50,568 nt of DNA from a virus (IMGVR_UViG_3300047548_001036:64001-114568); one strand, 5' to 3'; shown: positions 2,846 to 23,572, counted from the stretch's first letter. Translations and numbers: made by a program. Notes: a model not told the origin generated them from the letters alone.

Positions 2846-5800
2846 GTGGCAAACAATAAATTCGTAGTCAAGAATGGACTACTAACTCAAGACATTGAAT
2901 TCGTATCACCGAATCGTCAACATACTATTTCAATCGACATGCTGGACACCGATACGCTTAGTATATCTGGCAACAGCGGTCAATTATTTTCAATTACCGA
3001 TAATTTAACTGGCACAATTTTTGCAGTTAACGATATATCCGGGGTTCCTAGTATTGAAGTATTCGATACTGGCAAAATTCAGCTAGCCGAAACATTCGGT
3101 AATGTGTTAATCGGCACCAGCACAGATAATGGTACTGATAAACTTCAGGTAAATGGATACATTTCGGCAACTGGGTATATCGGTACTGGCACAGGGTTAA
3201 CGAACCTTAATGCATCAAACTTAACCACTGGTACGGTTTCTACTGCACGACTAGGCTCTGGTACCGCAAACACTACTACTTGGCTTCGTGGAGACGGTAC
3301 TTGGCAAGTAGGACCATTAGGATATACCGGGTCTCAAGGTACTACAGGGTACACCGGATCCACAGGGTATACTGGCAGTCAAGGTGTAATCGGTTATACT
3401 GGATCTACTGGCTATACCGGATCAAAAGGAGATATTGGCTACACTGGATCTACTGGCTATACCGGATCAAAAGGCGATGTTGGATATACTGGTAGCAAGG
3501 GCGACATAGGATATACTGGTTCAAAAGGCGATATTGGTTATACTGGGTCTGTTGGCTACACTGGATCAAAAGGCGATATTGGATATACTGGTAGCAAGGG
3601 AGATATTGGTTATACTGGATCTACCGGCGCTGGCTATACAGGTAGCAAGGGAGATATTGGTTATACTGGATCAAAAGGCGATATAGGCTACACTGGGTCC
3701 ACCGGTGTTCAGGAAATTGCACGGATTGGTAGAAATATTTACAGCAGTCAAGCAGGCACTGGAGGAACTGGTCTAGATAACTTCTTTGCTGGAAAGTATG
3801 CTGGACTTTGCAATACTACCGGCAGCAACAACTTTTTTGTAGGGTTATATGCAGGAGTCTGCAACACACACGGATCCAATAATACATTTATAGGAACGCG
3901 GGCCGGTCAGACTAATACTACCGGGTGTCATAATAATTTCATTGGCAATCAAGCCGGTCGGTATAACACATTTGGTAATGGTAATAACTTCTTCGGGCAG
4001 TTTGCTGGGATTTTTAATACGACAGGATCCCACAACTTCTTTGCCGGATCTTATGTCGGATATTGCAATACTACTGGCAGCAACAACTTCTTTGCTGGAC
4101 GATGTGCTGGTTACAAGAATACCACCGCTACTAATAATATTTTTATAGGAGACGGTGCAGGCTATTCGAACACTACCGGTAACCATAATTTCTTCGCTGG
4201 ATCGGTTGCAGGGTATTGCAACACTACCGGGCGTAATAACGTTTTTATCGGTTCGAGCGCAGGTTGTGCTAACACTACCGGTACTTGCAATATTTTTATC
4301 GGTCCAGGCGCAGGCGAAAGAAATACACGCGGCTCGCAAAACATATTTTTAGGTAGAGCCGGGCTGTATAATAGCACTGGTAACGACAACATTTTCTTTG
4401 GTTGTTATGCAGGGCGTAGCAACACTACCGGAACTAACAATATTTTCTTTGGTCCAGAGTCAGGCTGCCTTAATACAGTCGGATCTTGGAACCATTTCTT
4501 TGGAGCACATGCTGGTCGCGCAAACCTTACTGGTGATGCCAATATTTTCATCGGAGGATGTGCTGGATGTTCTAACGTTTCTGGTAATGCTAACGTCTTT
4601 ATTGGAATACGTGCAGGATGCTGCAATACAGCCGGATGTTATAACGTATTCATTGGACAGGACACCGGGATATCAAATACTACAGGTAAAGATAATACGT
4701 TCATCGGTCGTAGTGCTGGTCGATGCAATACTACCGGCATTGATAATACATTCATCGGCCGCAGTGCTGGATTTTTCAATACCACCGGGTCTAATAATAC
4801 TTTTATTGGTGGACAGGCTGGCGCTTCTAACACCTCCGGACAAGACAACTTCTTTGCCGGACAGTGTGCCGGTTATTCGAACACCACAGGCGGAGGTAAT
4901 AATTTCTTTGGGTATCAAGCCGGTCTATGTAATACTTCCGGTTACTATAACAATTTCTTTGGATATCGAGCTGGATGCAGCAATACTACCGGAAATAATA
5001 ACACCTTTATCGGTGTCAATGCCGGTCGTTGTAATACTATAGGATGTAGTAACACATTTATAGGCTTGAGCGCCGGTTTTAAAAATGTCAGCGGAAAATA
5101 TAACACATTTATCGGAGAATCTGCAGGCCGCGGAAATATTAACGGTAATAGCAATATAGCGGCAGGGTACGCTGCTTTATATCTAAACACTACTGGTAGC
5201 TGCAATATAGTATTTGGAGAGAGCGCAGGATTTTCAAATACTACCGGATCTCACAATTTCTTCGCCGGGCTGTGTGCCGGATATAGTAATACTGTTGGCA
5301 GCAACAACTTCTTTGCTGGATCTTGTGCTGGTTACTCGAACACCACCGGCAACTACAATAACTTCTTTGGCAACTTCGCAGGATATGCAAACACCACCGG
5401 CAACAATAACACCTTCTTTGGTTGTAATGCAGGCTGTGCAGTAACTACAGGATCAAATAACATTATTATCGGTTCTGTAAATGGAACCAGTAATTTAACC
5501 AGCACAGTAATTTTAGCGACTGGTACAACTGAAAGACTAAAAGTTGACGCCGTAGGACTTACTGTTAACTCCTCATTGTACGGAGTATCTGTACTTAAAG
5601 CATCGACTACTAACGGTACCGCAACAGTACTAACCACAGATGGCGCAGCTGCAGGTGCTGATAATCAAATTATACTACCTAACGACTCTACTTATGCATT
5701 TAAGGTTTTAGTTGCAGCACGCAGAACCGATGCAGACGGAGAATCAGCGGGTTATGAGTTCAGCGGTGTTATAGATCGTAATACCAACGCTGCATCCACA

Positions 5801-5971
5801 GCTGTAGTCGGCTCTGTTACAAAGACTTTATTAGCTGAAGATTCTGCTGCGTGGGATGCGACAGTTACAGCAGATACAACTAACGGTGGAATAAAGATTG
5901 AAGTAACAGGTGAAACATCTAAAACTATTAGCTGGGTGGCAACTATATGGACTTCTAGAGTTACAGGATAA
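2846..5971 (+). CDS. Long tail-fibre/adhesin-like protein with collagen-like and 14-aa beta-roll repeats
   Basis: GTG start; 1041 aa. N-terminus 'NKFVVKNGL', then a Gly-X-Y (GYT/GSK/GDI) block, tandem 'G..N.F[FI]G..AG..NTT' repeats and a C-terminal beta domain. Confidence 0.85.
3311..3708 (+). repeat. Collagen-like Gly-X-Y coding repeat (GYTGSKGDI-type units; 16 GYTGS copies)
   Basis: 18/27-bp imperfect tandem units that differ mainly at third codon positions. Confidence 0.9.
3775..5475 (+). repeat. Tandem 14-residue (42-bp) Asn/Gly/Cys-rich repeats, likely a beta-roll
   Basis: Recurring G-x-x-N-x-F-[FI]-G-x-x-A-G-x-x-N-T-T consensus with period about 14 aa; boundaries approximate. Confidence 0.85.
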
Positions 5972-6041: not shown

Positions 6042-9000
6042 ATGGCGATTAATTTTGATCATAGTGGTGCCGGTAATGTAACTTTAAAATCCCCTGCTAA
6101 CGGTAACGCTATAATGGTGTTACCTGCTGACAACGGAAGTGCAGGGCAAGCATTAATCACTGATGGTTCTGGAAATTTATCTTACTCGTCCAACGTTGGC
6201 TATACCGGATCAAAAGGTGATATTGGATATACTGGCAGTCGTGGTGATACTGGATATGCTGGGTCAAAGGGGGATGTAGGATACACCGGATCTACTGGTG
6301 CTGGTTATACTGGTTCAAAAGGAGATATTGGTTATACTGGGTCAAAAGGAGATATTGGTTATACTGGCTCTACTGGTGTACAGGAAATTGCACTTAATGG
6401 TACTACGATCTACAGCAGCCAGGCAGGAAATGGCGGTACCGGAAACTTCTTTGTTGGAGAGCTAGCCGGGGCCGTGACCACCAGCGGTACGAATAACGTA
6501 TTTTTTGGATGTCGGACAGGATGGGCTAATATTTCAGGATCTAACAATATGTTTATTGGCTACCAAGCCGGATATTGTAACTCATTTGGAAGTAATAACT
6601 TCTTTGCTGGATTGTGTAGTGGTTATAAAAATACCACTGGTTCAAACAACGTTTTTATAGGTTGTTGGTCTGGGTATAACAACACTGTTGGATGTAAAAA
6701 TATTTTAATTGGTGATGGTTCCGGTGCTGAAGTATCCACCGGATCAAACAACGTCATCATTGGAAGTGTTGCTGGATCTGCTGGGTTGTGTAATACGGTT
6801 ATTCTTGCAGCAGGTGCTACCGAGAGATTAAAAGTTGATGCTACTGGACTGTTTATCAACGGTGTTGCATTTACTGCCGGAGTAGGCTATACTGGTAGTA
6901 TTGGATATACAGGCAGTCAAGGTGCAACTGGTTATACTGGATCAAGTGGAGACATTGGATATACCGGTAGTATTGGCTATGCAGGTAGTGTAGGGTATAC
7001 TGGATCCGTTGGATATACTGGTAGCCAAGGAGTAATTGGTTATACTGGATCTACTGGTGCTGGATATACAGGCAGTCAGGGTGTAATTGGTTATACTGGC
7101 AGTAAGGGAGACATTGGTTATACTGGATCTGTTGGTGTACAAGAAATTGCACGTACTGGTACTAATATCTACAGCAGTCAAGCAGGCACTGGTAGTACTG
7201 GTACTTATAATTTCTTTGTTGGGTGTCGAGCAGGTGCATGTAACAGCACTGGAGCATATAATAACTTTTTCGGAAGATGCGCTGGATTCAAAAATACTGC
7301 AGGAAGCAGCAATAACTTTTTTGGTGATCGATCCGGGTTTTGCAATACTACCGGATGTCATAACTTCTTTGCTGGAGATCGAGCGGGTAGAGCAAATACT
7401 ACAGGTGGTTATAATACTTTCATCGGATATCAGGCCGGCGACTCGAACACTACTGGTAACTTCAATACATTCATTGGAAGATGGACCGGATATTCAAATA
7501 CTTACGGTAATAACAATACGTTCATTGGACGTAGTGCCGGGTTCATAAATGGTACCGGTAGCAATAACTTATTTTTCGGTTATTATGCCGGCCATTTAAA
7601 TAGCACAGGATCTTATAATTTATTCTTAGGATCACAATCCGGATATAGTAATACTTCTGGATGTGGTAACATCTTTACTGGTCGATGTGCTGGATACAGT
7701 AACATTTCCGGATGCCATAACTTCTTTTCTGGCGCCAATGCCGGATTATGCAACATTAGCGGCAGCTACAATACATTCATTGGAGTGGGTGCTGGTATGT
7801 GCAATACCACTGGAAATCACAACATATTTGTTGGAATGTGGTCCGGGTGTTCGAACACATTTGGTAGCAATAATACTTTCTTTGGATGTTGTGCAGGTGC
7901 ATGTAACACTACTGGTACCGGTAATACATTCATAGGACAACTTGCTGGGTCATGTACCACATTTGGTAATAACAACTTCTTTGCTGGAACCAGTGCAGGA
8001 ACTAGTAATGCTACGGGTAATAACAATACATTTATCGGCAACCTCGCCGGCTGGGCCAACCGTAGCGGATGTAACAATACCTTTATAGGATGCCAATCAG
8101 GATATGCTAATCAAGCTGGATGCGACAATACCTTTATCGGACTTTGCTCTGGACAACTAAACTCTGCCGGAAATAACAACACATTTATTGGGAGATGTGC
8201 TGGCAGATCAAATACAACTGGAAGTAACAACACATTTATCGGACAACATGCTGGATACAATAACACGACTGGAGTTCAAAATATATTTATTGGATGCTAT
8301 GCCGGTTATAATTCTACCTACGGCAATTATAATTTCTTCCTCGGTTATAAGTCTGGATGTACAAGTAGCAACAGTTATAGTAATATCTTCATCGGAAAGT
8401 ATAGTGGAAAGGCAGTTACAACCGGTAGCTATAATATATTCTTCGGAAATTCTTCCGGTGCATTAACTACAACCGGTAATAACAACATATTTTTTGGGTG
8501 CGGCGCCGGTTATTCTACAAACACTGGAGTTCATAATACTATCTTTGGCAGCGCTGCTGGATTTTCGAATACTACTGGCAGTCATAATACATTCTTTGGC
8601 TGGTGCGCCGGAGTATCAAATACTACTGGATCCAATAATACATTTATCGGATGCAGGGCAGGATGTGCAGTAACTACTGGATCAAACAACATCATTATAG
8701 GAAGTGTGGTTGGATCATCTGACTTATCTAATACAGTTATTCTTGCTGCTGGTACCACCGAAAGATTAAAAGTTAATGCAACTGGGTTGTTTATCAACGG
8801 AACTGCATTTACCGGTGGAGCAGGTGTATTTAGTGTTTGTAATACCACAAGCATTGTTAGTTGTCTAGGTGGCACCAGTGGAACTGGCACACATAACTTC
8901 TTTGCTGGGTATTGCTCGGGTCGATCAAATACTACTGGTAATTACAACACTTTTATTGGAGCCGAAGCAGGATGTTCAACTACATTCGGACATAATAACT

Positions 9001-9788
9001 TTTTTGTCGGAAATAAATCTGGATTCTGTAACGTTACCGGGGAACATAATACCTTTATAGGATACTATTCAGGACTAAGTAACACTGGCGGTGCATTTAA
9101 TACATTTATTGGACAACGTGCTGGGTTCAGTAATACCACAGGAAGTTACAATATTTTTAACGGGGCGTGCGCGGGTCGAGCAAATACTACCGGTAATACG
9201 AACATAATGCTTGGCACCAGGGCAGGGTTTAACGCAACCACAGGGTCTTCTAATATTCTCATTGGATATAACTCAGGATGTTCGATAACTACCGGTGCTA
9301 ATAACGTTATTATAGGAAGTATAGTCGGTTCAGCTGGCTTATGTGATACCGTTATTATTGCAGCGGGTACAACTGAGAGAATAAAAGTTGATACCACTGG
9401 ATTATACATTAACGGTTCTCCATTTACAGGATCTCAATCATCTGCTGTGCCTACTGTATTAAACGACATTTCTACGCAGTTTGATGGAGAGAAAACTGTC
9501 TTTAATTTATTGGTAGACCAAACAAGTATAAATACTATAGTTGATTCAAAGGATTTAGAAGTAATCGTCAATGGACGGAGGTTAACACCGTATGTAGATA
9601 CCTTACATTATCCATGGATTTCTGTCTACGATTCTTTTAAAGGATTCAGAGTAGTAGGCGATAAAATTTTAATTTATAACGCACCGGAGGCTGGTGATTC
9701 TGCATTTATTTCACTAACACAAGTCTCTACCACAAGACAAAAAAGAAAATACCCGTTTAGTGCAACAACAATTGCATTAGGAGATTAA
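6042..9788 (+). CDS. Second long tail-fibre/adhesin-like protein (three beta-roll modules, two collagen blocks)
   Basis: 1248 aa; same repeats as 2846..5971. Each module ends in 'G.NN..IGS..G...L..TVI.AAG.TER.KV..TGL.ING'; the C-terminal domain is distinct. Confidence 0.85.
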   Translation: MAINFDHSGAGNVTLKSPANGNAIMVLPADNGSAGQALITDGSGNLSYSSNVGYTGSKGDIGYTGSRGDTGYAGSKGDVGYTGSTGAGYTGSKGDIGYTGSKGDIGYTGSTGVQEIALNGTTIYSSQAGNGGTGNFFVGELAGAVTTSGTNNVFFGCRTGWANISGSNNMFIGYQAGYCNSFGSNNFFAGLCSGYKNTTGSNNVFIGCWSGYNNTVGCKNILIGDGSGAEVSTGSNNVIIGSVAGSAGLCNTVILAAGATERLKVDATGLFINGVAFTAGVGYTGSIGYTGSQGATGYTGSSGDIGYTGSIGYAGSVGYTGSVGYTGSQGVIGYTGSTGAGYTGSQGVIGYTGSKGDIGYTGSVGVQEIARTGTNIYSSQAGTGSTGTYNFFVGCRAGACNSTGAYNNFFGRCAGFKNTAGSSNNFFGDRSGFCNTTGCHNFFAGDRAGRANTTGGYNTFIGYQAGDSNTTGNFNTFIGRWTGYSNTYGNNNTFIGRSAGFINGTGSNNLFFGYYAGHLNSTGSYNLFLGSQSGYSNTSGCGNIFTGRCAGYSNISGCHNFFSGANAGLCNISGSYNTFIGVGAGMCNTTGNHNIFVGMWSGCSNTFGSNNTFFGCCAGACNTTGTGNTFIGQLAGSCTTFGNNNFFAGTSAGTSNATGNNNTFIGNLAGWANRSGCNNTFIGCQSGYANQAGCDNTFIGLCSGQLNSAGNNNTFIGRCAGRSNTTGSNNTFIGQHAGYNNTTGVQNIFIGCYAGYNSTYGNYNFFLGYKSGCTSSNSYSNIFIGKYSGKAVTTGSYNIFFGNSSGALTTTGNNNIFFGCGAGYSTNTGVHNTIFGSAAGFSNTTGSHNTFFGWCAGVSNTTGSNNTFIGCRAGCAVTTGSNNIIIGSVVGSSDLSNTVILAAGTTERLKVNATGLFINGTAFTGGAGVFSVCNTTSIVSCLGGTSGTGTHNFFAGYCSGRSNTTGNYNTFIGAEAGCSTTFGHNNFFVGNKSGFCNVTGEHNTFIGYYSGLSNTGGAFNTFIGQRAGFSNTTGSYNIFNGACAGRANTTGNTNIMLGTRAGFNATTGSSNILIGYNSGCSITTGANNVIIGSIVGSAGLCDTVIIAAGTTERIKVDTTGLYINGSPFTGSQSSAVPTVLNDISTQFDGEKTVFNLLVDQTSINTIVDSKDLEVIVNGRRLTPYVDTLHYPWISVYDSFKGFRVVGDKILIYNAPEAGDSAFISLTQVSTTRQKRKYPFSATTIALGD
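6198..6378 (+). repeat. Collagen-like GYTGS block 1 of fibre 6042
   Basis: 6 GYTGS plus 1 GYAGS in Gly-X-Y register; the last about 38 aa are identical to the end of the block in fibre 2846. Confidence 0.85.
6883..7138 (+). repeat. Collagen-like GYTGS block 2 of fibre 6042
   Basis: 10 GYTGS plus 1 GYAGS in Gly-X-Y register. Confidence 0.85.
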
Positions 9789-12809: not shown

Positions 12810-13535
12810 GTGGCATCCAGGGATTTTTTAAAACACACTGTTTCGTCAGCCGCGCCAATAAACAGCGCAGTTGGTGACGAATGGTATGATCCTATAGCTA
12901 ATAAACTTTATAAGAAAGTTGTAGTTAACGGAACACTTGTTCAATACAAAGAAGTTTCGTTAACTAATATTATATCCGATACCGCTCCAATTTCTCCGAG
13001 TCCAGGAACATTGTGGTGGGATTCTACAAGTGGTAGCCTTAAAATATACTATGTAGATGAAGATTCATCGCAGTGGGTGGAGGCAAATACAGCAACTGGT
13101 CCGGTCGGACCAGTTGGACCAATTGGTCCAACTGGATATACAGGATCTGCAGGACAGGTTGATTTAACTACTCCGCAGACTATGTCAAACAAGACATTTT
13201 CTAATTCAACATTTTTAGGTTACACGGAAACTCAGTATTCTACAAATGCTAGCACTTCAATAACATTAAGTTTAGACAATGGAACAATTCAGTATTTAAC
13301 ATTAACTGGTAATACAACAATTAGTATGCCTACGGTTGCTTCCGGTAAATCTTTTGTTATGTACTTAAAACAAGATGCAACTGGTTCAAGGACAGTTACA
13401 TGGTCGACCGTAAAATGGGCAGGATCCACTGCTCCTACTATTACTGCAACAGCATCAAAGATGGATATATTTAGTTTCTTTTCTGACGGGGTAAACTGGT
13501 ACGGCGCTGTCATAGGACAAAATTATACACCGTAA
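12810..13535 (+). CDS. Short tail-fibre-like virion protein
   Basis: GTG start. 'GDEWYD', 'APISPSPGTLWWDS', a short collagen stretch (GPVGPVGPIGPTGYTGSAG) and a C-terminal 'LKQDATGSRTVTW..VKW..TAPT.T..DIFSFFSDG.NWYG' fibre domain. Confidence 0.75.
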   Translation: MASRDFLKHTVSSAAPINSAVGDEWYDPIANKLYKKVVVNGTLVQYKEVSLTNIISDTAPISPSPGTLWWDSTSGSLKIYYVDEDSSQWVEANTATGPVGPVGPIGPTGYTGSAGQVDLTTPQTMSNKTFSNSTFLGYTETQYSTNASTSITLSLDNGTIQYLTLTGNTTISMPTVASGKSFVMYLKQDATGSRTVTWSTVKWAGSTAPTITATASKMDIFSFFSDGVNWYGAVIGQNYTP

Positions 13536-15896: not shown

Positions 15897-16952
15897 ATGT
15901 CTATTAGTATTAATCATCAAACAAATAACATCACTTCTTCTGGAAATATTGTTATATCCGGTAGTGGGGCTCTGACAATACCGCTAGGAACCACAGCAGA
16001 ACGACCGGCTAGTCCATCAAATGGCATGCTTCGCTATAATACAACATTAAATGTTTATGAAGTATATTCAACAGTAACTAGTAGCTGGAGATTTACCCCA
16101 TTAGGAGATGTTATCGTTCAGGCAGCAACTAACGGTGAGCAAGTATATACTAACCCGGGAAGTTATAGTTGGGTATGCCCTGCTGGAGTCACTGCGGTAT
16201 GCGTGCTAGTAGTCGGTGCAGGGGGAGGAGGCGTTGGATATTCACAATACTCAGGTGCAGGGGGAGGGGGCGGACTAGCATATTTAAATAATATTCCAGT
16301 AACCCCAGGAAACAGCTATACTGTAGTAGTCGGGGCTGGAGGGAATGCGGCCGTAGGCGTTGCCAGCAATGCCGGTAGTGGTGGGACTAGTTATTTTATA
16401 AACACTTCTACAATATATGCCACAGGCGGATCTGGAGGTCAGTACCAAGGTACCGCGGCATCAGGTGGAACTGGATTTTATATTTCAAGCATCTATGGGT
16501 CTGGTGCTGCAAATACCGGCGGAAGTGGTGGGTACGCGGTGGGTACCACCGCTGGCGCGGCAGGCGGCGGAGGGGCTGCAGGCTATAGTGGCCCGGGTGG
16601 AAACGGTGGTAGTATTATTGCATCGGGCAATGGCACCTCCGCTAGCGCAGGATCCGGGGGGGGAGGTGGAGGCGGTGGCTTCACCACCACTAACACTTTA
16701 TCCGGCGGGGGAGGAGGAGGAGTAGGAATATACGGACTCGGTACGAGTGGAGCTGCCGCATCAGCGATGGGCGCCGGTGGTGGTGGTGGAAGCGGTGGAA
16801 GCAGCGGGTCCGGAACTGTACCTGGAGCTTACGGAGGGGGCGGAGGGGCAAGTGATGCTTTAGGGGGCGCCGCGCCTGGTGCCGATGGCGTTGTACGAAT
16901 CATCTGGGGACCAAATAGAGCATTCCCATCAACTAATACAGGAGCACTGTAA
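15897..16952 (+). CDS. Glycine-rich-domain virion/tail protein
   Basis: 'GTTAERP.SP.NGMLRYNTT' followed by 'SWVCPAGVTAVCVLVVGAGGGG...GAGGGGGLAY.NNIPVTPG.SYTVVVGAGG' and poly-Gly tracts. Confidence 0.8.
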   Translation: MSISINHQTNNITSSGNIVISGSGALTIPLGTTAERPASPSNGMLRYNTTLNVYEVYSTVTSSWRFTPLGDVIVQAATNGEQVYTNPGSYSWVCPAGVTAVCVLVVGAGGGGVGYSQYSGAGGGGGLAYLNNIPVTPGNSYTVVVGAGGNAAVGVASNAGSGGTSYFINTSTIYATGGSGGQYQGTAASGGTGFYISSIYGSGAANTGGSGGYAVGTTAGAAGGGGAAGYSGPGGNGGSIIASGNGTSASAGSGGGGGGGGFTTTNTLSGGGGGGVGIYGLGTSGAAASAMGAGGGGGSGGSSGSGTVPGAYGGGGGASDALGGAAPGADGVVRIIWGPNRAFPSTNTGAL

Positions 16953-17329
16953 TGATAGAACTTTATAGTTACAAAGGAGCTTACCCTTACCCGCTTCCCG
17001 AGGATATGTCTAACTATCTACTAGAAGACTTTGTGTTAGCACCAAGTAAACCAGATCTTTTAATTGACGAATTTCTAGACTGGGATGGTAGCAACTGGAT
17101 TGTTCGCAAAGCGAATGCTTCGGAAACCTCAATAAAAGGACAAGAAGTACGAGATTTTAGAAATTTACTGTTAGATAAATCCGACATAGATATTATACAG
17201 TCATACGAAAAGTCCTTAACAGGACAATCCGTAGATGCAACTAGTTTGATTATTTACCGTCAACAGCTAAGAGACATAACAACTCAACCGGGATTTCCTT
17301 GGGAAATAGTTTGGCCTGAAAAACCCTAA
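16952..17329 (+). CDS. Phage tail assembly chaperone-like protein
   Basis: C-terminal 'RN.LL..SD...YRQQLRDITTQPGFPWEIVWPEKP' signature. Confidence 0.8.
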   Translation: MIELYSYKGAYPYPLPEDMSNYLLEDFVLAPSKPDLLIDEFLDWDGSNWIVRKANASETSIKGQEVRDFRNLLLDKSDIDIIQSYEKSLTGQSVDATSLIIYRQQLRDITTQPGFPWEIVWPEKP

Positions 17330-17350: not shown

Positions 17351-17379
17351 TTGACTTCATATTAAACTTGCTGTAAAAT
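17351..17379 (+). promoter_or_regulatory. sigma70-type promoter for the glycosyl/sulfotransferase operon
   Basis: TTGACT - 17 nt - TAAAAT. Confidence 0.75.
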
Positions 17380-17396
17380 GTCAATTTTATACTATT

Positions 17397-18038
17397 ATGA
17401 AGAAGATTTTAATTGCTACACCCTGCCTTGATCAAAAGGTAGATGCGTATTTTGTGCACAGTCTTTGTGAATCAATAAAACTAGGATTAAAGCACAATCT
17501 TGATATAAGGTGTGTGTTCCTAGCCAACGAAAGTATCTTGCCCATGGCCAGAAACGAACTGTTTGATCTTGCCTATAAAGAACAGTACGACGTCATGGTT
17601 TTTATCGACGATGACGAATACTGGAAAGAAGATTACCTAATCGAAATTATTAAATCAGAGAAGGATGTCGTTTGTTTACCCGTTGTTAACAAAGGAGACA
17701 AACAGATTGGATTTAATATTCTTTCGGATCTTACTGATCGAGACCCAGCAGACGGATATTATCAAACAAAAAAGGTAGGTGCCGGGTTCTTAAAGCTATC
17801 AAGAAAAGTTGTGGTCGATCTATGGGAATCAAATACTGAGCTATCATTTCGCAATAAAAAAATAAAAAATATTTGCGAATATACATATGCTAGTGGTTCG
17901 TTTGTGGGCGAAGACATTACATTATCTAATAAGATTAGAGAGCTAGGTTATACAATTTGGATTAATCCAAATCATACCGTTAGCCATATTGGTAATAAAA
18001 TGTATACTGGCGATTTTATCAAATCTCAAAATCTATGA
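17397..18038 (+). CDS. Glycosyltransferase-like protein (GT-A fold)
   Basis: 'ILIATPC', 'MARNEL', 'FIDDD' (DxD), 'GAGFL', 'GEDITL' and 'SHIGNK' motifs. Confidence 0.75.
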   Translation: MKKILIATPCLDQKVDAYFVHSLCESIKLGLKHNLDIRCVFLANESILPMARNELFDLAYKEQYDVMVFIDDDEYWKEDYLIEIIKSEKDVVCLPVVNKGDKQIGFNILSDLTDRDPADGYYQTKKVGAGFLKLSRKVVVDLWESNTELSFRNKKIKNICEYTYASGSFVGEDITLSNKIRELGYTIWINPNHTVSHIGNKMYTGDFIKSQNL

Positions 18039-19318
18039 GTAAAATCGATATAATTATTCCTACCATGTGGGCTCCAGCATCTGCGTTAGATGCAATTACG
18101 CATTACTGCCAATCTACAATAATTAATAAAATAATTATCATAGACAATAATCGAGCAGCTAGACCTAAAGATCCTATCTTTAATCAAGATAAGATAGAAA
18201 TTGTAGATTACGGGAGAAATATCTATGTCAATCCTGCATGGAACGAAGGAGTTGCCCGAGCGACTTCTGACTTAGTGTGCATTTTAAATGATGACATATT
18301 CGTTTCAAATGAAATATTTGAGATGATAGCTCAGCAGAACTTCGATGCCATTGACTTAATTGGTGTGAACCTTAGAGGTGCTCACGACAATTACACCATT
18401 ACCGATCATGAAGATAATACTGATCGGCTTGTTCGTTTAAATTACGATATAAACAGACCCATTGGGGGGCAGGCGTGGGCATTTGGTATTTGCATGTTTA
18501 TGCAGAGGAAAAAGTATTCCATAATTCCCAGTCTATATCAAGTATGGTACGGTGATGACTACATTGCACAGCGATCTACTAATATATACGCACTTAATAC
18601 CAATAAGATCAAAGGTAAAATTTCGGCTACGTTAACAAAACACTCGTCTCCAAACAGCGATATTTCTAAACGTGTCGAACTCGATTCGAAGAATTTTATT
18701 CGCTTCGGTCACTTCAGAAATGGGAACAGCTGGGACATTGCACAAAATACTATCAAAAGACTTGAATCAGAAAGAAAAATGGAATCAATATTTCCTAATG
18801 AATATCATCTAGCAAAAACAACGCCTAGCGATATAAATGAAAACGTACATATTCTTTATGAGTTAGCGACCCAATGCGATTCAGTTGTAGAAATGGGTGT
18901 GAGAACCGGAGTAAGTACCAGAGCATTTTTGAACACCGATGTTAAACTAACCTCTTACGATATTGCATTAGACAACAAAGTCGGGCAATTATTTGGTATT
19001 GCAAAACACCTGGGCAAAAATGTAAATTACATACAAGCAAATGTCTTAGACATCGAAATTGAAGAGTGTGATTTGTTGTTTATTGATACGTTACATACAT
19101 ATAAACAATTAAGCACTGAACTAAAGCTACACGGTAATAAAGCTAAACGATACATTGCATTTCACGATACACACACATTTGGATTAAGAGACGAAGTTAG
19201 TAATGAAAACAACGGACTCTTACCTGCAATAATTGAATTCATGATCATTAATCCTCATTGGCGGTTTAAGATATATAAAACAAATAATAACGGGTTAACC
19301 GTTTTGGAGAGACAATGA
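18035..19318 (+). CDS. GT2 glycosyltransferase fused to a class I SAM-dependent methyltransferase
   Basis: N-terminal 'IIIPTMW..IIIIDNN..VNPAWNEG..ILNDDI..WYGDD'; C-terminal 'VEMGVRTGVST..LLFIDTLHTY.QL..EL..AFHDT'. Confidence 0.8.
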   Translation: MSKIDIIIPTMWAPASALDAITHYCQSTIINKIIIIDNNRAARPKDPIFNQDKIEIVDYGRNIYVNPAWNEGVARATSDLVCILNDDIFVSNEIFEMIAQQNFDAIDLIGVNLRGAHDNYTITDHEDNTDRLVRLNYDINRPIGGQAWAFGICMFMQRKKYSIIPSLYQVWYGDDYIAQRSTNIYALNTNKIKGKISATLTKHSSPNSDISKRVELDSKNFIRFGHFRNGNSWDIAQNTIKRLESERKMESIFPNEYHLAKTTPSDINENVHILYELATQCDSVVEMGVRTGVSTRAFLNTDVKLTSYDIALDNKVGQLFGIAKHLGKNVNYIQANVLDIEIEECDLLFIDTLHTYKQLSTELKLHGNKAKRYIAFHDTHTFGLRDEVSNENNGLLPAIIEFMIINPHWRFKIYKTNNNGLTVLERQ

Positions 19319-20214
19319 AATATAGTATTTTTCACGTACAAGGTGGAATTGGAAAACATGTTGCTGCAACAGCGGTAGCCAAAGCAATCAAAAATAATCA
19401 TCCTGATCGTAAACTAATCGTGGTGTGTGCATATCCGGATATTTTTAATAATTTAGAGTTCGTAGACCGTGTTTACACCATAGGTAAAACTTCATACTTT
19501 TATCAAAATTATATTCAGGATAAGGATTCAGTGGTTTTTCATCACGAGCCCTACTATACCACGGATCATATTCACAAAAGATTGCCATTAATTCAAAACT
19601 GGTGTAAGTTATATGGGTTAACCTATAATAATGAAGCACCGGTTGTTAAATTTAATAAATTGCAGTATGATCTTTCCAAGAAATACTGGGTTAATCAATC
19701 CAAACCCATTATGGTATTACATACTAATGGTGGTATGATGACCACTGACGCTAAACCCTATGCATGGACCCGAGATATGCCGGAAGATATAGCGCAGGCA
19801 TTGGTAGATCATTACAAAAAAGACTATTGTATCTACCAAGTTACGAAAATGAACTCTCCCAAACTTACAGGAGCAAGGCATGTTTTTGCCACCCCCGAAC
19901 ATTCGCTATCCATGATGGAGTTCTTTAGTATACTGCTACACAGTAAAAAGAGAATTTTAATTGATTCTTCTCTTCAGCACGTAGCTGCAGCACTTAAACG
20001 CCCTTCCACAGTTCTGTGGAATGGGACTTCCCCAACAGTGTTTGGTTATGATTTACATACTAATATATGTACAAAAGTACCATACAATTTTAAATTGCCG
20101 GGCAGTTACCTTTTTGACTTTGACTTTAACGGCAATGAAGTTGAATACCCGTTTACAGAAGATCAGAAGCTATTTGATTTAGAAGAAATTATTAAATCAG
20201 TTGATGCACAATAA
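19315..20214 (+). CDS. Glycosyltransferase, GT-B/family 9-like
   Basis: 'GGIGKHV.AT.V..AIK...PDRKLIVV..YPDIF', 'LIDSSLQH.AAAL..PSTVLW..T.P..FGY'. Confidence 0.7.
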   Translation: MKYSIFHVQGGIGKHVAATAVAKAIKNNHPDRKLIVVCAYPDIFNNLEFVDRVYTIGKTSYFYQNYIQDKDSVVFHHEPYYTTDHIHKRLPLIQNWCKLYGLTYNNEAPVVKFNKLQYDLSKKYWVNQSKPIMVLHTNGGMMTTDAKPYAWTRDMPEDIAQALVDHYKKDYCIYQVTKMNSPKLTGARHVFATPEHSLSMMEFFSILLHSKKRILIDSSLQHVAAALKRPSTVLWNGTSPTVFGYDLHTNICTKVPYNFKLPGSYLFDFDFNGNEVEYPFTEDQKLFDLEEIIKSVDAQ

Positions 20215-20223
20215 GGAAAAACA

Positions 20224-21159
20224 ATGAAGAAAAAATATTATTTTATGGCAGGACTGCCGCGTAGTGGCAGCACAATGCTATCTGCAATTCTTAACCAGAA
20301 TCCTAGATTCTACTCGGGACCTAGTTCTCCTGTTGTACCAACTATGTTAGCAATTGAACAATCGCTAGGACAGGATGAACTTTTTAATGCATTTCCAAAA
20401 ATGGAGTTTGCCAGTAACCTTATCAAATCCGTACTGGAGCAATATTATTCCGATACAGATAAACCAGTAATTTTTGAAAAAAATAGAAGCTGGGTTAATA
20501 GAATGGAATACATTCGAGGATATTTTGGTATTGAAAACGCCAAAGTACTATATCCAGTCAGGGATATTTCAGAAATATTGGCATCATTTATATCCATGAT
20601 AAAACGAAACCCAACCATTGTTAATGGAAGGTTAAACTTTATCGACCAAGCACTGGTACAGCAAGGCATTCCATTGACAGACGAAAATCGTTGCAAAGCA
20701 CTGGCAAATGGTGGAATACTAGGACAATCATACGAAGGTTTGAAAAAGGCATTAACTGAAGGGTACCGCAATAACATTCACTTTATTGAATATAAAGATT
20801 TGGTCAATAACCCAAGAGAGACTATGAAAAAAGTCTACGAGTTTCTTGGAGAGTCCTACTATCATCATGATTTTAAGAACTTAAAAAATATTCACCAAGA
20901 GGATGATGCAAGGATTTACGGATTTAACGACATGCACACGGTTAGGCCCTTAGTTAAATCTACTGCAGAATCTCCCGAAGATGTATTGCCTATGTCTATA
21001 ATTGAGGCTTCACGTGGTACTGAATTCTGGAGAGAATTCGTGGATACACCCCTGACCGAAGAAACTGATACTGTGGAGTCTGAAGTAACCAGTACGATAA
21101 ATAAACAGATGTTTTTCGGTGAAGTTATCGAAGACTTAAATGATTCTAGATTTATTTAA
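20224..21159 (+). CDS. PAPS-dependent sulfotransferase, RaxST/TPST-like (Sulfotransfer_3 type)
   Basis: 5'-PSB loop 'FMAGLPRSGSTML', then 'LNQNP', 'SPV', 'KNRSW', 'VRDISEILASF', 'YKDLVNNP..M.KVYEFL..HDF' and 'EFW'. Confidence 0.85.
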   Translation: MKKKYYFMAGLPRSGSTMLSAILNQNPRFYSGPSSPVVPTMLAIEQSLGQDELFNAFPKMEFASNLIKSVLEQYYSDTDKPVIFEKNRSWVNRMEYIRGYFGIENAKVLYPVRDISEILASFISMIKRNPTIVNGRLNFIDQALVQQGIPLTDENRCKALANGGILGQSYEGLKKALTEGYRNNIHFIEYKDLVNNPRETMKKVYEFLGESYYHHDFKNLKNIHQEDDARIYGFNDMHTVRPLVKSTAESPEDVLPMSIIEASRGTEFWREFVDTPLTEETDTVESEVTSTINKQMFFGEVIEDLNDSRFI

Positions 21160-21173
21160 CAAGGAGATTTAAA

Positions 21174-21449
21174 ATGGAAGAAACAAGACAGCGTACTTTA
21201 GAAGAAATTCAAGGAACTATTAGAGCAGCACGAGACAGTGTCTGGGTTGTCAACGATACACTTGCTAAACTTGCTGAAGGTGCCGCATCCAATAACGAAT
21301 TAAAGGGTAACCTTGAGCGTAATGTTGGTCATTTAAAACTAGTAGTAGCTGATCCAGAAATTATCGCGTCAAACGAAGATATAGCAGACTTACATACAGC
21401 TATAGCAGCTGGCGAAGCTAAACTAGCTGAAGCAATTTGGCCTGCATAA
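21174..21449 (+). CDS. Hypothetical helical protein
   Basis: 91 aa with an AAGGAG SD; no family recognised. Confidence 0.65.
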   Translation: MEETRQRTLEEIQGTIRAARDSVWVVNDTLAKLAEGAASNNELKGNLERNVGHLKLVVADPEIIASNEDIADLHTAIAAGEAKLAEAIWPA

Positions 21450-21467
21450 TCATAATTACTTTAATAT

Positions 21468-21980
21468 ATGAGCGAACGAATCTTAATTATGGGGCTGCCC
21501 GGAGCAGGTAAAACTTTTTTTGCAGAAAGGCTCAAGAAGTACATAGAAACATACTCTGTAAACTATGACTTTCCCTTACATTTAAAAGTTACGCAAGAGA
21601 TGCCGGTTTTACATAAATGGGAAGCCACGGTGAAATGGTTTAATGCTGATGAGATTCGTAAAGAGTATAATGATTGGGACTTCAGCAACGAAGGGCGTAT
21701 TCGACAAAGTTTGCGTATGTTTAACTTTGCAATGAAGTCCACCACAGACTACGTCATCTGCGACTTCGTTGCTCCTCTTACTGAGATGAGAAATAATTTT
21801 AAAGCAGATTGGACTATTTGGATTGACACCATCAAACAAAGCCGGTTTGAAGATACGAACAAAGTTTTCGAGCCTCCTTCCAAGTATGACTTTAGAATTA
21901 CTGAACAAAATGCAGATAAATGGGTACCAATCGTAGCCAACTACATATTAAGTAATCAAAGGCCTAACATTCAGAGTTAA
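21468..21980 (+). CDS. Adenylylsulfate (APS) kinase-like P-loop protein
   Basis: Walker A 'IMGLPGAGKT', then 'WFNADEIR', 'DFS.EGRIRQ', 'ICDFVAP' and 'FEPP' motifs of the CysC-like family. Confidence 0.75.
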   Translation: MSERILIMGLPGAGKTFFAERLKKYIETYSVNYDFPLHLKVTQEMPVLHKWEATVKWFNADEIRKEYNDWDFSNEGRIRQSLRMFNFAMKSTTDYVICDFVAPLTEMRNNFKADWTIWIDTIKQSRFEDTNKVFEPPSKYDFRITEQNADKWVPIVANYILSNQRPNIQS

Positions 21981-22032: not shown

Positions 22033-22059
22033 AGGACTGCAATGCAGTCCTTTATTTTT
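22033..22059 (+). terminator. Intrinsic terminator closing the modification operon
   Basis: AGGACTGC-aat-GCAGTCCT stem followed by TTTATTTTT. Confidence 0.75.
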
Positions 22060-22075
22060 GGCGTAAGGAATTTCC

Positions 22076-23572
22076 ATGGAGATATTAAAAGAATATGTTA
22101 TAACCCTTTATCATTTGAGCGAATTAGAGGAATTCTATAATGATATGGAAACTCTTCGACCAACTCTTTATAACTGTATGCCCGAAAGGTCAATAGTCAT
22201 AGCCTTAAGAAGGCCCTTAAGTCGAAATACACACTACTGGCTATATGATTACGAAGTAGAAGGACTAAGAAAGGATCCTAGAATTGCTGCGATAAATTTA
22301 AAACCCGTAGAACTAGGAATGAAGGTTCGCCGATTATGGACGGAGACCAGTGACGAGTGGAATAAATCTAGTACCGTCAAAGCCAGTCACAAAAATTGGG
22401 GATTACTGCGAGTAATTGAAGGAGCACAAAGAGAAGGATGGGGTTCCGATAATATCCCAAATCAATCTGCAAGTATATCCCTAACAGAAGAAGGACGAAA
22501 TGTTGATATAATCATTGTCGACGGACACATTGATCCAGAACATCCAGAATTTGATAATCGTGTTAAACAGTTAGACTGGAATACTTTAACGGCAGATGTG
22601 TTAGGCATAGACAATGACTTTGCTGGAGGGTTAAGCAGTAAATATGTGTACGCATTTTATACCGGAAAAGAAGATAATAATCATGCAACACATGTTGCGG
22701 GGATTGCTGCGGGTAATAGCCAGGGGTGGGCAAGAAGTGCAAATATCTATAACATTAGTCCATATGATAGTAATCCCAATAAAGTAAGCGAACTAATCAT
22801 AATGGATTATATACGAGCGTTTCATAGAAATAAAGAAATAAATCCAGACACAGGATATAAAACCCCCACTATTGTCAATAACAGTTGGGGATATAACTAT
22901 GAAATTTACTTGGATAATGATCCTGTTTTAAATGTAATATATCAAGGTAACTATATAGAAGGACCATTTACAGAGTATGAGTTACAAAATTACGGAATAT
23001 TCATAGATAATGGTGTATGTTATGCGCCGGCTTCGTATATTGCTGTCGACGCCGATGTTGAAGATGCTATCTCCGAAGGGATTATTGTGGTAGGGGCAGC
23101 TGGAAACGAAGGTACTAAAATTGATTTACACGGTGGCATTGATTACAACAATTGCTTCACCACCAAAAAAGTAGGCACTGTATTTTATAATAGAGGAAGC
23201 AGTCCCGGTAAAGCAGTAGGTAGCATATGTGTAGGTAGCATCGATGCACTAAGTACAGAATACAAAGCAATATATAGTAATTGCGGTCCTAGAGTTGATA
23301 TATTTGCACCTGGAACAAACATTATTAGCAGTACGATAAGCGGCGGAGTTCCTGACCCTAGAGGTAACGGATTTTTAGACAAATACAGCGGCACTAGCAT
23401 GGCGTGCCCACAAGTATGTGGTCTATTGGCTTGTGCATTAGAACTAAATCCAACTATGACACCTGAAGGCGCATTGAATTATTTAATTGAGCATTCAAAA
23501 CATAATCAAATCACAGACGACACCTATCTCAGAAGCCTTCAAGGTGCACCTAATAGATACCTGGCACGGTAA
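22076..23572 (+). CDS. Subtilisin-like serine protease (peptidase S8)
   Basis: Catalytic triad motifs 'IIVDGHID', 'NHATHVAGIAAG' and 'GTSMACPQV'; oxyanion 'AAGNE'; N-terminal propeptide-like region. Confidence 0.9.
   Translation: MEILKEYVITLYHLSELEEFYNDMETLRPTLYNCMPERSIVIALRRPLSRNTHYWLYDYEVEGLRKDPRIAAINLKPVELGMKVRRLWTETSDEWNKSSTVKASHKNWGLLRVIEGAQREGWGSDNIPNQSASISLTEEGRNVDIIIVDGHIDPEHPEFDNRVKQLDWNTLTADVLGIDNDFAGGLSSKYVYAFYTGKEDNNHATHVAGIAAGNSQGWARSANIYNISPYDSNPNKVSELIIMDYIRAFHRNKEINPDTGYKTPTIVNNSWGYNYEIYLDNDPVLNVIYQGNYIEGPFTEYELQNYGIFIDNGVCYAPASYIAVDADVEDAISEGIIVVGAAGNEGTKIDLHGGIDYNNCFTTKKVGTVFYNRGSSPGKAVGSICVGSIDALSTEYKAIYSNCGPRVDIFAPGTNIISSTISGGVPDPRGNGFLDKYSGTSMACPQVCGLLACALELNPTMTPEGALNYLIEHSKHNQITDDTYLRSLQGAPNRYLAR

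Follow-up and report, generated by a model that had tools for sequence, protein, structure and literature searches.

In bacteria, proteins or surface glycans are seldom sulfated, and such sulfation has received little study. The sulfotransferase RaxST of Xanthomonas oryzae has in RaxPQ a dedicated supply of the donor 3'-phosphoadenosine 5'-phosphosulfate (PAPS), and NodH together with NodPQ is a glycan sulfotransferase with its own PAPS supply. Moreover, virion glycosylation is known from mycobacteriophages, from the chlorovirus PBCV-1 with its A064R protein and from the fibrils of Mimivirus, and in the collagen-like glycoprotein BclA of Bacillus the collagen-like G-x-T repeats are the O-glycosylation sites; to our knowledge, none of these four systems includes a sulfotransferase or a kinase for adenosine 5'-phosphosulfate (APS). 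According to Freeman et al. (2023, PMC10527164), it is established that phage-encoded glycosyltransferases glycosylate the virions of mycobacteriophages. Finally, bacterial operons with sulfotransferases and PAPS synthetases have been predicted to modify co-encoded tail-collar or collagen-like proteins, with hydroxylation proposed to precede sulfation (Iyer et al. 2010, PMC2938197). Here, we describe a six-gene operon in a 50,568-nucleotide stretch of DNA (IMGVR_UViG_3300047548_001036:64001-114568; hereafter, the window), which forms the final 50.6 kb of an IMG/VR contig of 114.6 kb with a CheckV completeness estimate of 32% and derives from an uncultured T4-like aquatic phage. The operon lies directly behind the fibre genes and encodes three glycosyltransferases, one of them fused to a methyltransferase, a sulfotransferase, a small protein and an APS-kinase-like protein. 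We give even chances to the reading that it is a conserved tailoring module of T4-like aquatic phages that decorates the phage's own fibres with a methylated glycan and sulfate. The genomes compared plainly show which genes make up the operon, how they are arranged, to which families they belong, how widely the module is conserved and where it lies; its predicted acceptor is the phage's own repeat-rich fibre proteins.

The operon and its link to fibre genes

The six open reading frames (ORFs), all on the + strand, fill positions 17397-21980, with overlaps of 4 nt among the first three and gaps of 9-18 nt thereafter. The operon, its signals and the fibre genes that bear on it are as follows, with SAM standing for S-adenosylmethionine.

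17351..17379, + strand: sigma70-like promoter site, TTGACT-17-TAAAAT, within the 67-nt gap 5' of the operon
17397..18038, + strand: GT-A fold glycosyltransferase, 213 aa, soluble, with a DDDE (DxD-type) motif (Pfam GT2 weak; phrog_1574, E 7e-15)
18035..19318, + strand: fusion of a GT2 glycosyltransferase and a class I SAM methyltransferase (Methyltransf_24), 427 aa (Pfam)
19315..20214, + strand: GT9-like GT-B glycosyltransferase, 299 aa (Pfam GT9 below cut-off; alignment of the C-terminal nucleotide-sugar motif with WaaC/WaaF)
20224..21159, + strand: PAPS-dependent sulfotransferase of the RaxST-containing branch of Sulfotransfer_3, 311 aa (profile, motifs, fold, tree)
21174..21449, + strand: small conserved helical protein of no known family, 91 aa, with motifs ARDSVWV and RNVxHLKLVV
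21468..21980, + strand: diverged APS kinase (CysC-like P-loop kinase), 170 aa (profile, motifs, fold of a relative)
22033..22061, + strand: terminator-like hairpin, 8-bp stem with 5 G-C pairs followed by a T-run, within the 95-nt gap 3' of the operon
16952..17329, + strand: tail-fibre assembly chaperone, the last gene of the fibre cluster 5' of the operon (Pfam Phage_tail_APC, E 1e-11; PHROG tail fibre assembly families)
2846..5971 and 6042..9788, + strand: two long fibre genes, 1041 and 1248 aa, presumed substrates (Pfam Collagen on both)

A first-pass annotation had described a self-contained operon of six genes with these enzymes behind fibre genes; its ORF coordinates are exact and its enzyme assignments hold, and the sigma70 promoter site and the terminator that it named are present as sequence elements. 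The other genes 5' of the operon encode two Laminin_G_3 proteins, further large ORFs and a glycine-rich-domain protein (Pfam, PHROGs).

The sulfotransferase family gave 1984 matches in the protein collection and occurs on at least 556 viral contigs. We analysed the 80 best viral loci together with L004, L005 and L008, i.e. 83 loci with 55 distinct sulfotransferase sequences. Counts are loci with the feature over loci with enough flank; because the loci come from related phages, the events are not independent.

GT9-like gene directly 5' of the sulfotransferase gene: 44/47
GT2 near the sulfotransferase gene (in some loci, the GT2 part only): 35/40
GT-A near the sulfotransferase gene: 32/38
Fibre homolog within 10 kb 5': 24/28
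Homolog of the small 91-aa protein: 36/55
Kinase: 28/52

The physical tie between the operon and fibre genes, noticed in the window alone by the first-pass annotation, is thus kept in many viral contigs. It is also kept in loci devoid of any glycosyltransferase (L064, L076-78), in which the sulfotransferase gene lies directly 3' of genes for tail-fibre, tail-spike or virion proteins, and in L075, in which collagen-GYT fibre genes flank it on both sides. The tie extends to some cellular genomes. In Roseivirga, the sulfotransferase gene lies directly 3' of a gene for a protein with a Phage Tail Collar domain; in Saccharibacteria, it lies 5' of a gene for a 1530-aa protein with an endosialidase-chaperone domain, on the far side of which lies a homolog (32% identity) of the GT9-like gene of the window; and in Nostoc, it lies between genes for a calcium-binding protein and a hemopexin-repeat protein. 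The link to fibres in the glycosyltransferase-less loci, L075, Roseivirga and Saccharibacteria exceeds simple synteny and supports that the fibres are the target.

Among 50,697 phage records, megablast with the operon gave no match. By tblastn, the sulfotransferase was found in six Synechococcus phage records only (S-SKS1, S-SRM01 and S-SCSM1, two each) as well as in four marine single-cell viruses, and the GT9-like gene was found in only one marine virus among these phage and virus records. In S-SKS1, the product of the gene 3' of the sulfotransferase gene (L002:4343-4849) contains three repeats in which a tyrosine-rich motif, SYGYFGGG, occurs, and a Kelch-repeat protein is encoded 5'; in S-SRM01, an RCC1-repeat protein is encoded 5' of the sulfotransferase.

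The GT-A protein matches Pfam Glycos_transf_2 weakly (17.3 bits) and has weak matches to cyanobacterial exopolysaccharide glycosyltransferases. The second protein scores 23.6 bits for GT2, just above the cut-off of that family, and 26.1 bits for Methyltransf_24, just below the cut-off of that one; Synechococcus phage S-SRM01 also has a GT2-methyltransferase fusion beside its sulfotransferase, in this case with a TylF-like match. The third protein scores 19.4 bits for Glyco_transf_9 against a cut-off of 22 bits, in the C-terminal donor-binding region only, where it also aligns with WaaC (E 0.05); a search of the Atlas with this protein returned unnamed viral clusters only, in a related one of which 45% of the members carry PF01075. 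The 91-aa protein matched no Pfam or PHROG family, and a complex prediction for it with the sulfotransferase scored 0.00, which gives no verdict and from which we conclude nothing.

These resemblances bear on a reading that we consider rather unlikely, namely that the operon remodels the host envelope (the core of lipopolysaccharide (LPS) or an exopolysaccharide), e.g. to block superinfection or the adsorption of progeny to lysing cells. The likeness of the GT9-like enzyme to LPS heptosyltransferases in the donor-binding region and the exopolysaccharide matches of the GT-A protein fit this reading, as does the occurrence of the sugar sulfotransferases NoeE and NodH among the nearest reviewed folds of the sulfotransferase; NodH with NodPQ counts in its favour as a glycan sulfotransferase that has a PAPS supply. 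However, the operon encodes no membrane protein, and a Pfam scan of its proteins found no flippase, polymerase or lipid-carrier-priming enzyme. Moreover, the sulfotransferase gene still adjoins fibre genes where glycosyltransferases are absent, and its cellular homologs lie beside genes for fibre-like or secreted proteins rather than in polysaccharide clusters.

The expression signals cut both ways. The promoter is of the sigma70-like early type in the window and in about one-third of relatives, as would suit an envelope target, whereas about one-third have a late-type TAAATA in its place: among 34 distinct relatives, the site 5' of the GT-A gene is of the TTGACA type in 11/34, some near-perfect, and is replaced by TAAATA in 11/34. 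Over the scanned region, promoter-like sites numbered 28 compared to 25.6 in shuffled sequences, i.e. they are not enriched, and the case for the promoter at 17351-17379 is one of position. TAAATA lies 38-48 nt 5' of both collagen-fibre genes and not 5' of the operon. Thus, the proposal of the first-pass annotation that the enzymes are made early and their substrates late agrees with the signals in the window but does not extend to the relatives in general. In addition, no terminator separates the chaperone gene from the operon, so that late fibre transcripts might also read through into the operon.

Just 3' of the terminator, at 22076-23572, lies a gene for a 498-aa subtilase (Peptidase_S8, E 2e-32; phrog_9158; weak tail-fibre PHROG matches). 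L075, L080 and L084 have homologs of it amid their fibre genes, and the hairpin is preceded by a TAAATA motif. Further downstream, the large subunit of ribonucleotide reductase (37644-39974) is nearest to those of Xanthomonas, Ralstonia and Stenotrophomonas phages (54-60% identity). With this likeness and the freshwater Burkholderiales origin of the nearest cellular sulfotransferases, the host may be a proteobacterium and not a cyanobacterium.

The sulfotransferase and its possible acceptors

The sulfotransferase matches Pfam Sulfotransfer_3 (PF13469) over residues 7-212 with 66.1 bits against a cut-off of 27 (E 7e-18) and phrog_27463 with E 2e-69. The 5'-phosphosulfate-binding (5'-PSB) loop PRSGST (residues 12-17) as well as R113 and S121 of the 3'-phosphate-binding (3'-PB) motif do not vary among 25 members of the family. 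Among solved structures, sequence likeness extends only to TPST1 and TPST2 (E 2e-6 for the protein alone and 2e-7 with the family profile, in the N-terminal half only); the 5'-PSB loop and the 3'-PB motif align with the same motifs of TPST1, and K86 is the equivalent of TPST2 K158.

In an AlphaFold2 model (mean confidence, pLDDT, 79.9), the fold matches many solved sulfotransferases at Z 11-18. The TPSTs are nearest (Z 17.3-18.1, ~236 residues aligned, root-mean-square deviation 3.1-3.6), and the CurM sulfotransferase (ST) gives 15.7, the OLS ST 14.8, heparan sulfate 3-OSTs ~14 (14.1) and cytosolic SULTs 13 or less. Among reviewed AlphaFold models, NoeE, a Nod-factor fucose sulfotransferase, came first (E 1.6e-8) with the TPSTs close behind, and NodH also appeared. 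NoeE is also the only NCBIfam match of the protein; NoeE of rhizobial plasmids was not reached by tblastn at E 1e-3. Because NoeE and the TPSTs are both among the top structural matches, the fold alone cannot tell a protein from a sugar acceptor.

To obtain a RaxST reference, we searched 300 genomes from the same family as an Arenimonas metagenome-assembled genome (MAG) with a profile; 20 of them have homologs. In the reference locus (L208, G197:C308:7505-11134), the sulfotransferase gene lies 1.5 kb 5' of an ORF of 1003 aa with a C39 peptidase domain at its start, and adjoins a small ORF for a RaxX-like peptide with an HVGGGDYPP motif, ending in HVGGGDYPPSAANDRHDPP, which agrees with what we take to be the sulfation-site motif of RaxX. 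The combination of a sulfotransferase, a C39-peptidase ABC exporter and a RaxX-like peptide identifies this locus as a raxX-raxSTAB cluster, and its sulfotransferase as a RaxST ortholog. The window sulfotransferase aligns with this ortholog over 266 collinear residues with 25% identity and 48% positives (E 7e-32), and every motif that the first-pass annotation had listed is present in the ortholog; the likeness to RaxST that it described is therefore real and full-length. In a 60-sequence maximum-likelihood (ML) tree, the enzymes of T4-like phages group with sulfotransferases of Burkholderiales and Comamonadaceae MAGs (46-51% identity), while RaxST, the Nostoc and Ralstonia proteins and most other cellular members lie across a split with 100/100 support and a branch length of 1.27. 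Thus, the sulfotransferase is, by sequence, a member of the family that contains RaxST and not an ortholog of RaxST. The comparison with RaxST, TPSTs and glycan sulfotransferases that the first-pass annotation had proposed is accordingly divided: homology to RaxST and the nearness of the TPST folds support a protein-tyrosine enzyme, but the separate clade and the top rank of NoeE do not.

The system of RaxST, RaxX and RaxPQ and the phage locus share the sulfotransferase family with all catalytic-domain motifs, including [ST]SPV, cytoplasmic action and PAPS from dedicated genes, here the predicted APS-kinase-like gene. The phage locus differs from it in the 25% identity and the separate major clade of its enzyme and in having no ATP sulfurylase; moreover, no RaxX-like peptide, C39/ABC or HlyD protein is encoded in the operon or its neighbourhood (Pfam, PHROGs), where the neighbours are instead glycosyltransferases, the kinase, fibres and the subtilase. 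Animal TPST1 and TPST2 are the nearest solved structures and share the 5'-PSB loop, the 3'-PB motif and the lysine equivalent to K158. However, sequence likeness to them is confined to the N-terminal half (E 2e-7), the phage enzyme has no membrane anchor, and the catalytic Glu of TPST2, E99, aligns with an invariant Ser of the phage family. At the position of the TPST G-E-E-T-R, the RaxST ortholog has T-S-P-V and the phage family an invariant G32-P-S-S-P36. Absence of the TPST Glu was considered as an argument against tyrosine sulfation and dropped: the RaxST ortholog, with the same [ST]SPV motif, also lacks this residue, and its absence is therefore a family trait that is uninformative about the acceptor.

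The two long fibre proteins each consist of an N-terminal region, a collagen-like GYT stalk (aa 156-289 in the first) and ~34 tandem 17-residue repeats. The ~33 GYT repeats, often with an upstream Asp, that the first-pass annotation had counted in the adjacent fibres were recovered, with 16 in the protein of 2846-5971, 16 in that of 6042-9788 and one GYTGS in that of 12810-13535; GYT occurs in collagen-like 9-residue units (GYT-GSK-GDI), and GD[IV] precedes about 15 of them. The 17-residue repeat, TGxxNxFxGxxAGxxNT, covers aa 308-885 of the first fibre (window 3767-5500) and ~aa 375-1100 of the second (7150-9300). It has a recurring N-T-T/S (sequon-like) motif, matched no Pfam family and looks beta-helix- or beta-roll-like. 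It is this repeat, and not the collagen stalk, that is the region common to the relatives' fibre genes directly 5' of the operon.

We regard it as improbable that the enzyme is a protein-tyrosine sulfotransferase acting on the ~33 GYT tyrosines of the collagen-like stalks. RaxST, the sole characterised member of the branch, sulfates a tyrosine of RaxX and is homologous to the phage enzyme over its full length, and the nearest solved folds are the TPSTs (Z 18.1 compared to 15.7 for CurM ST and 14.1 for heparan sulfate 3-OST); moreover, the GYT units are real and numerous, and four related loci (L075, L079, L080 and L084) pair GYT/GSK/GDI fibres with the sulfotransferase. The distribution of the tyrosine tells against this target, however. 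In relatives with a 55-75% identical sulfotransferase, the collagen units are GAQ/GAT/GST, GPI/GPQ, GFS/GIS/GYS or GYT/GSK/GDI, so that relatives with the same enzyme carry collagen repeats without Tyr; since the enzyme is conserved at this level while the stalk units vary, the stalk tyrosine cannot be the general target. Nor did the expected co-occurrence of the operon with GYT-collagen fibres appear: among the 43 loci with at least 7 kb upstream, collagen-like runs are present in 18 and GYT in collagen runs in only 4, although flanks of 10 kb could miss fibre genes as distant as those of the window. In addition, the fibre part common across loci is the 17-residue repeat, the phage enzyme lies in the other major clade from RaxST, and the top reviewed structure, NoeE, is a sugar sulfotransferase.

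If the fibres are the target, two types of acceptor come into question. We lean slightly to sulfate being placed directly on side chains of the fibre proteins, because phage loci without glycosyltransferases exist, cellular contexts without them occur as well, and RaxST is the sole characterised relative. That the sulfate is instead placed on a sugar of the glycan falls a little short of an even chance; the near-constant GT9-like neighbour and the NoeE match argue for the sugar and against the protein.

The APS-kinase-like protein and a proposed PAPS supply

The kinase of the window matches APS_kinase (PF01583) with 24.9 bits against a cut-off of 21.1 over residues 48-113 only, and its relatives match with 43.6-44.7 bits across the full N-terminal domain. 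It has a P-loop, GLPGAGKT (residues 9-16), and the aligned residues D61, R64, F72, S73, R77 and R83, the roles of which we assign on the assumption that they match those in CysC structures, are invariant and correspond to DGDxxR, LGFS and DRxENIRR, with N replaced by Q80. The motifs themselves diverge and read NAD..R, DWDFS and, where CysC has SFISP, DFVAP. A profile of 17 members of the kinase family found APS kinases in the PDB (2yvu, E 6e-6, then 2gks, 7yq0 and PAPSS1). The fold was read from a model of the 62% identical relative in L007, for which most of the top 25 Foldseek PDB matches are APS kinases (best E 5e-6).

The kinase is also paired with sulfotransferases outside T4-like phages. 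A Nostoc plasmid and the Ralstonia solanacearum megaplasmid each have an annotated cysC directly 3' of the gene for a sulfotransferase of 30-32% identity, and in L094, a 420 kb contig, a gene for a 138-aa APS-kinase-like protein overlaps the start of that for a 38% identical sulfotransferase. This pairing recurs independently in the three cases, which supports fibre tailoring. Profile, the partly matching motifs, the relative's fold and the pairing agree with the first-pass assignment of an APS kinase that makes the PAPS donor, and support the prediction that the kinase is a private PAPS supplier for the sulfotransferase. L094 is binned as Planctomycetales; in the part of the contig that was read, all ORFs are short and lie on one strand, most of them match no family, and the contig is perhaps a jumbo phage in a bacterial bin. 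S-SKS1 and S-SRM01 have no kinase homolog.

In most relatives, the kinase is longer: the ORF is 263-290 aa in 35/38 kinase-bearing loci compared to 170 aa in the window. The extra C-terminal domain of ~115 aa has HxGH and ISxTxxR nucleotidyltransferase motifs and is nearest to NadM-type NMN adenylyltransferases (2qjt, E 1.6e-6). Relatives of the kinase are present on at least 583 viral contigs, with the fused form in 80/80 best loci (fused loci include L007:12197-13054, L009, L012, L016, L019, L023, L030, L031, L049, L057, L067, L072, L081 and L114-L193). The kinase gene of the window stops just before the adenylyltransferase domain, and this domain was not found elsewhere on the 114.6 kb contig. 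A sulfotransferase homolog lies within 7 kb of the fused kinase in 28/60 eligible loci. Because a kinase predicted to 3'-phosphorylate an adenylylated compound is here fused to an adenylyltransferase, often near a sulfotransferase, the fusion might serve as a minimal PAPS synthase, with the small domain taking the part of ATP sulfurylase; alternatively, this domain might make an ADP-sugar or NAD.

In the other fused-kinase loci, the neighbouring genes are unrelated and include a TctA transporter, a carbamoyltransferase, a radical SAM protein and unknowns; the sulfotransferase of these phages may be elsewhere in the genome or of another family. Two loci with a fused kinase and no nearby sulfotransferase, L135:7911-10449 and L121:5486-6955, have a TctA/TctC-type transporter (383 kb contig) and a NodU-type carbamoyltransferase.

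Neighbours of this sort suggest a further explanation, in which the enzymes tailor a small peptide or a secondary metabolite. The fused kinase of relatives lies beside NodU-type carbamoyltransferase and radical SAM genes; moreover, the nearest cellular sisters of the sulfotransferase (Burkholderiales, Comamonadaceae MAGs) adjoin a fusion of an Asp/Asn beta-hydroxylase and a sulfotransferase, as well as TonB-dependent receptors. In L087:8831-10684 (also L089-L092), for example, a 617-aa fusion of an Asp/Asn beta-hydroxylase and a second Sulfotransfer_3 domain is encoded 3' of the sulfotransferase homolog. Such a hydroxylase-sulfotransferase context has also been tied to peptide-derived metabolites (Iyer et al. 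2010, PMC2938197). However, searches with Pfam and PHROGs found neither a peptide synthetase nor a precursor peptide nor an exporter within the operon or around it, and the position of the module relative to the fibre genes is highly constant, making this explanation quite improbable. The hydroxylate-then-sulfate route was itself sought and set aside: no gene for an Asp/Asn beta-hydroxylase or a 2OG-Fe(II) oxygenase turned up on the 114.6 kb contig, an absence not proven at an estimated completeness of 32%.

Viromics papers routinely list phage adenylylsulfate kinases among the auxiliary genes of the sulfur cycle, and the kinase and the sulfotransferase might on this precedent boost the assimilatory sulfur metabolism of the host. 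We give this hardly any credence: the sulfotransferase spends PAPS rather than passing it on to reduction, cysH, cysD and cysN are all missing beside the kinase, and in phages and bacteria alike the kinase goes together with sulfotransferases.

Proposed tailoring of the phage's own fibres

We propose that tailoring of the fibres would proceed as follows. Many bacteria assimilate sulfate via APS reductase and hence have little PAPS. None of the six operon proteins has a membrane segment, and the soluble products would act in the cytoplasm of the infected cell. The APS-kinase-like enzyme would turn host-made APS into PAPS, a supply that would matter in hosts with APS-reductase sulfate assimilation and little PAPS, and the RaxST-family sulfotransferase would consume it. 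The three glycosyltransferases, one of them fused to a sugar-type methyltransferase, would build a short methylated glycan. Fibre proteins would be modified before assembly, giving fibres that bear glycan and sulfate. The more specific claim that the fibres of these phages carry sulfate, as sulfotyrosine, another O-sulfated residue or a sulfated methylated glycan, by way of phage-supplied PAPS, is one that we make tentatively and regard as doubtful for now.

Several points weigh against fibre tailoring. Modification of virion proteins is here deduced from genes. The conserved gene order comes mostly from related T4-like phages, and the counts are not independent; accessory genes, moreover, commonly accumulate next to fibre clusters in any case. 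The most familiar enzymes of the GT9 family are LPS core heptosyltransferases, which suits a target in the host envelope, and the sigma70-like promoter suggests expression ahead of the late fibre genes. The kinase is missing in about half of the loci and the glycosyltransferases in a few. Finally, the hydroxylase and TonB context of the nearest cellular sisters hints at peptide or metabolite chemistry, and several cellular homologs (Acetobacteraceae) have uninformative neighbours.

With virus-encoded virion glycosylation, the phage locus shares soluble viral glycosyltransferases encoded beside structural genes, with the connection predicted here from gene position; the glycosyltransferase-methyltransferase fusion presumably resembles PBCV-1 A064R. 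With NodH/NoeE and NodPQ, it shares the combination of a sulfotransferase, glycosyltransferases, methyl or carbamoyl tailoring and a private PAPS supply, which here is predicted. In that system, however, the acceptor is a lipochitooligosaccharide and there are no fibre genes, and NoeE is undetected by tblastn at E 1e-3. The operons described by Iyer et al. (2010, PMC2938197) resemble the locus in that a sulfotransferase is co-encoded with fibre-like substrates, and the nearest cellular sisters of the phage enzyme occur in such contexts; they differ in that glycosyltransferases here stand in the place of the dioxygenase, and the prediction for them is itself computational.

Our literature searches returned no report of sulfation in phage particles and no paper linking phage sulfotransferases to fibres. 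If fibre tailoring is correct, this would be the first sulfated bacteriophage particle, and a coat of sulfate and sugar would be a new chemical layer in host recognition, particle stability or escape from defence. The module is common: the sulfotransferase occurs on at least 556 viral contigs and the kinase on at least 583. Viromics, which now counts the cysC and sulfotransferase genes of phages among the auxiliary genes of the sulfur cycle, would then need to reread them as a PAPS supply private to a tailoring enzyme. A large uncharacterised branch of the RaxST family is tied to fibre-like proteins in phages and bacteria, and the prediction of Iyer et al. (2010, PMC2938197) thereby gains concrete loci in which it is open to test.

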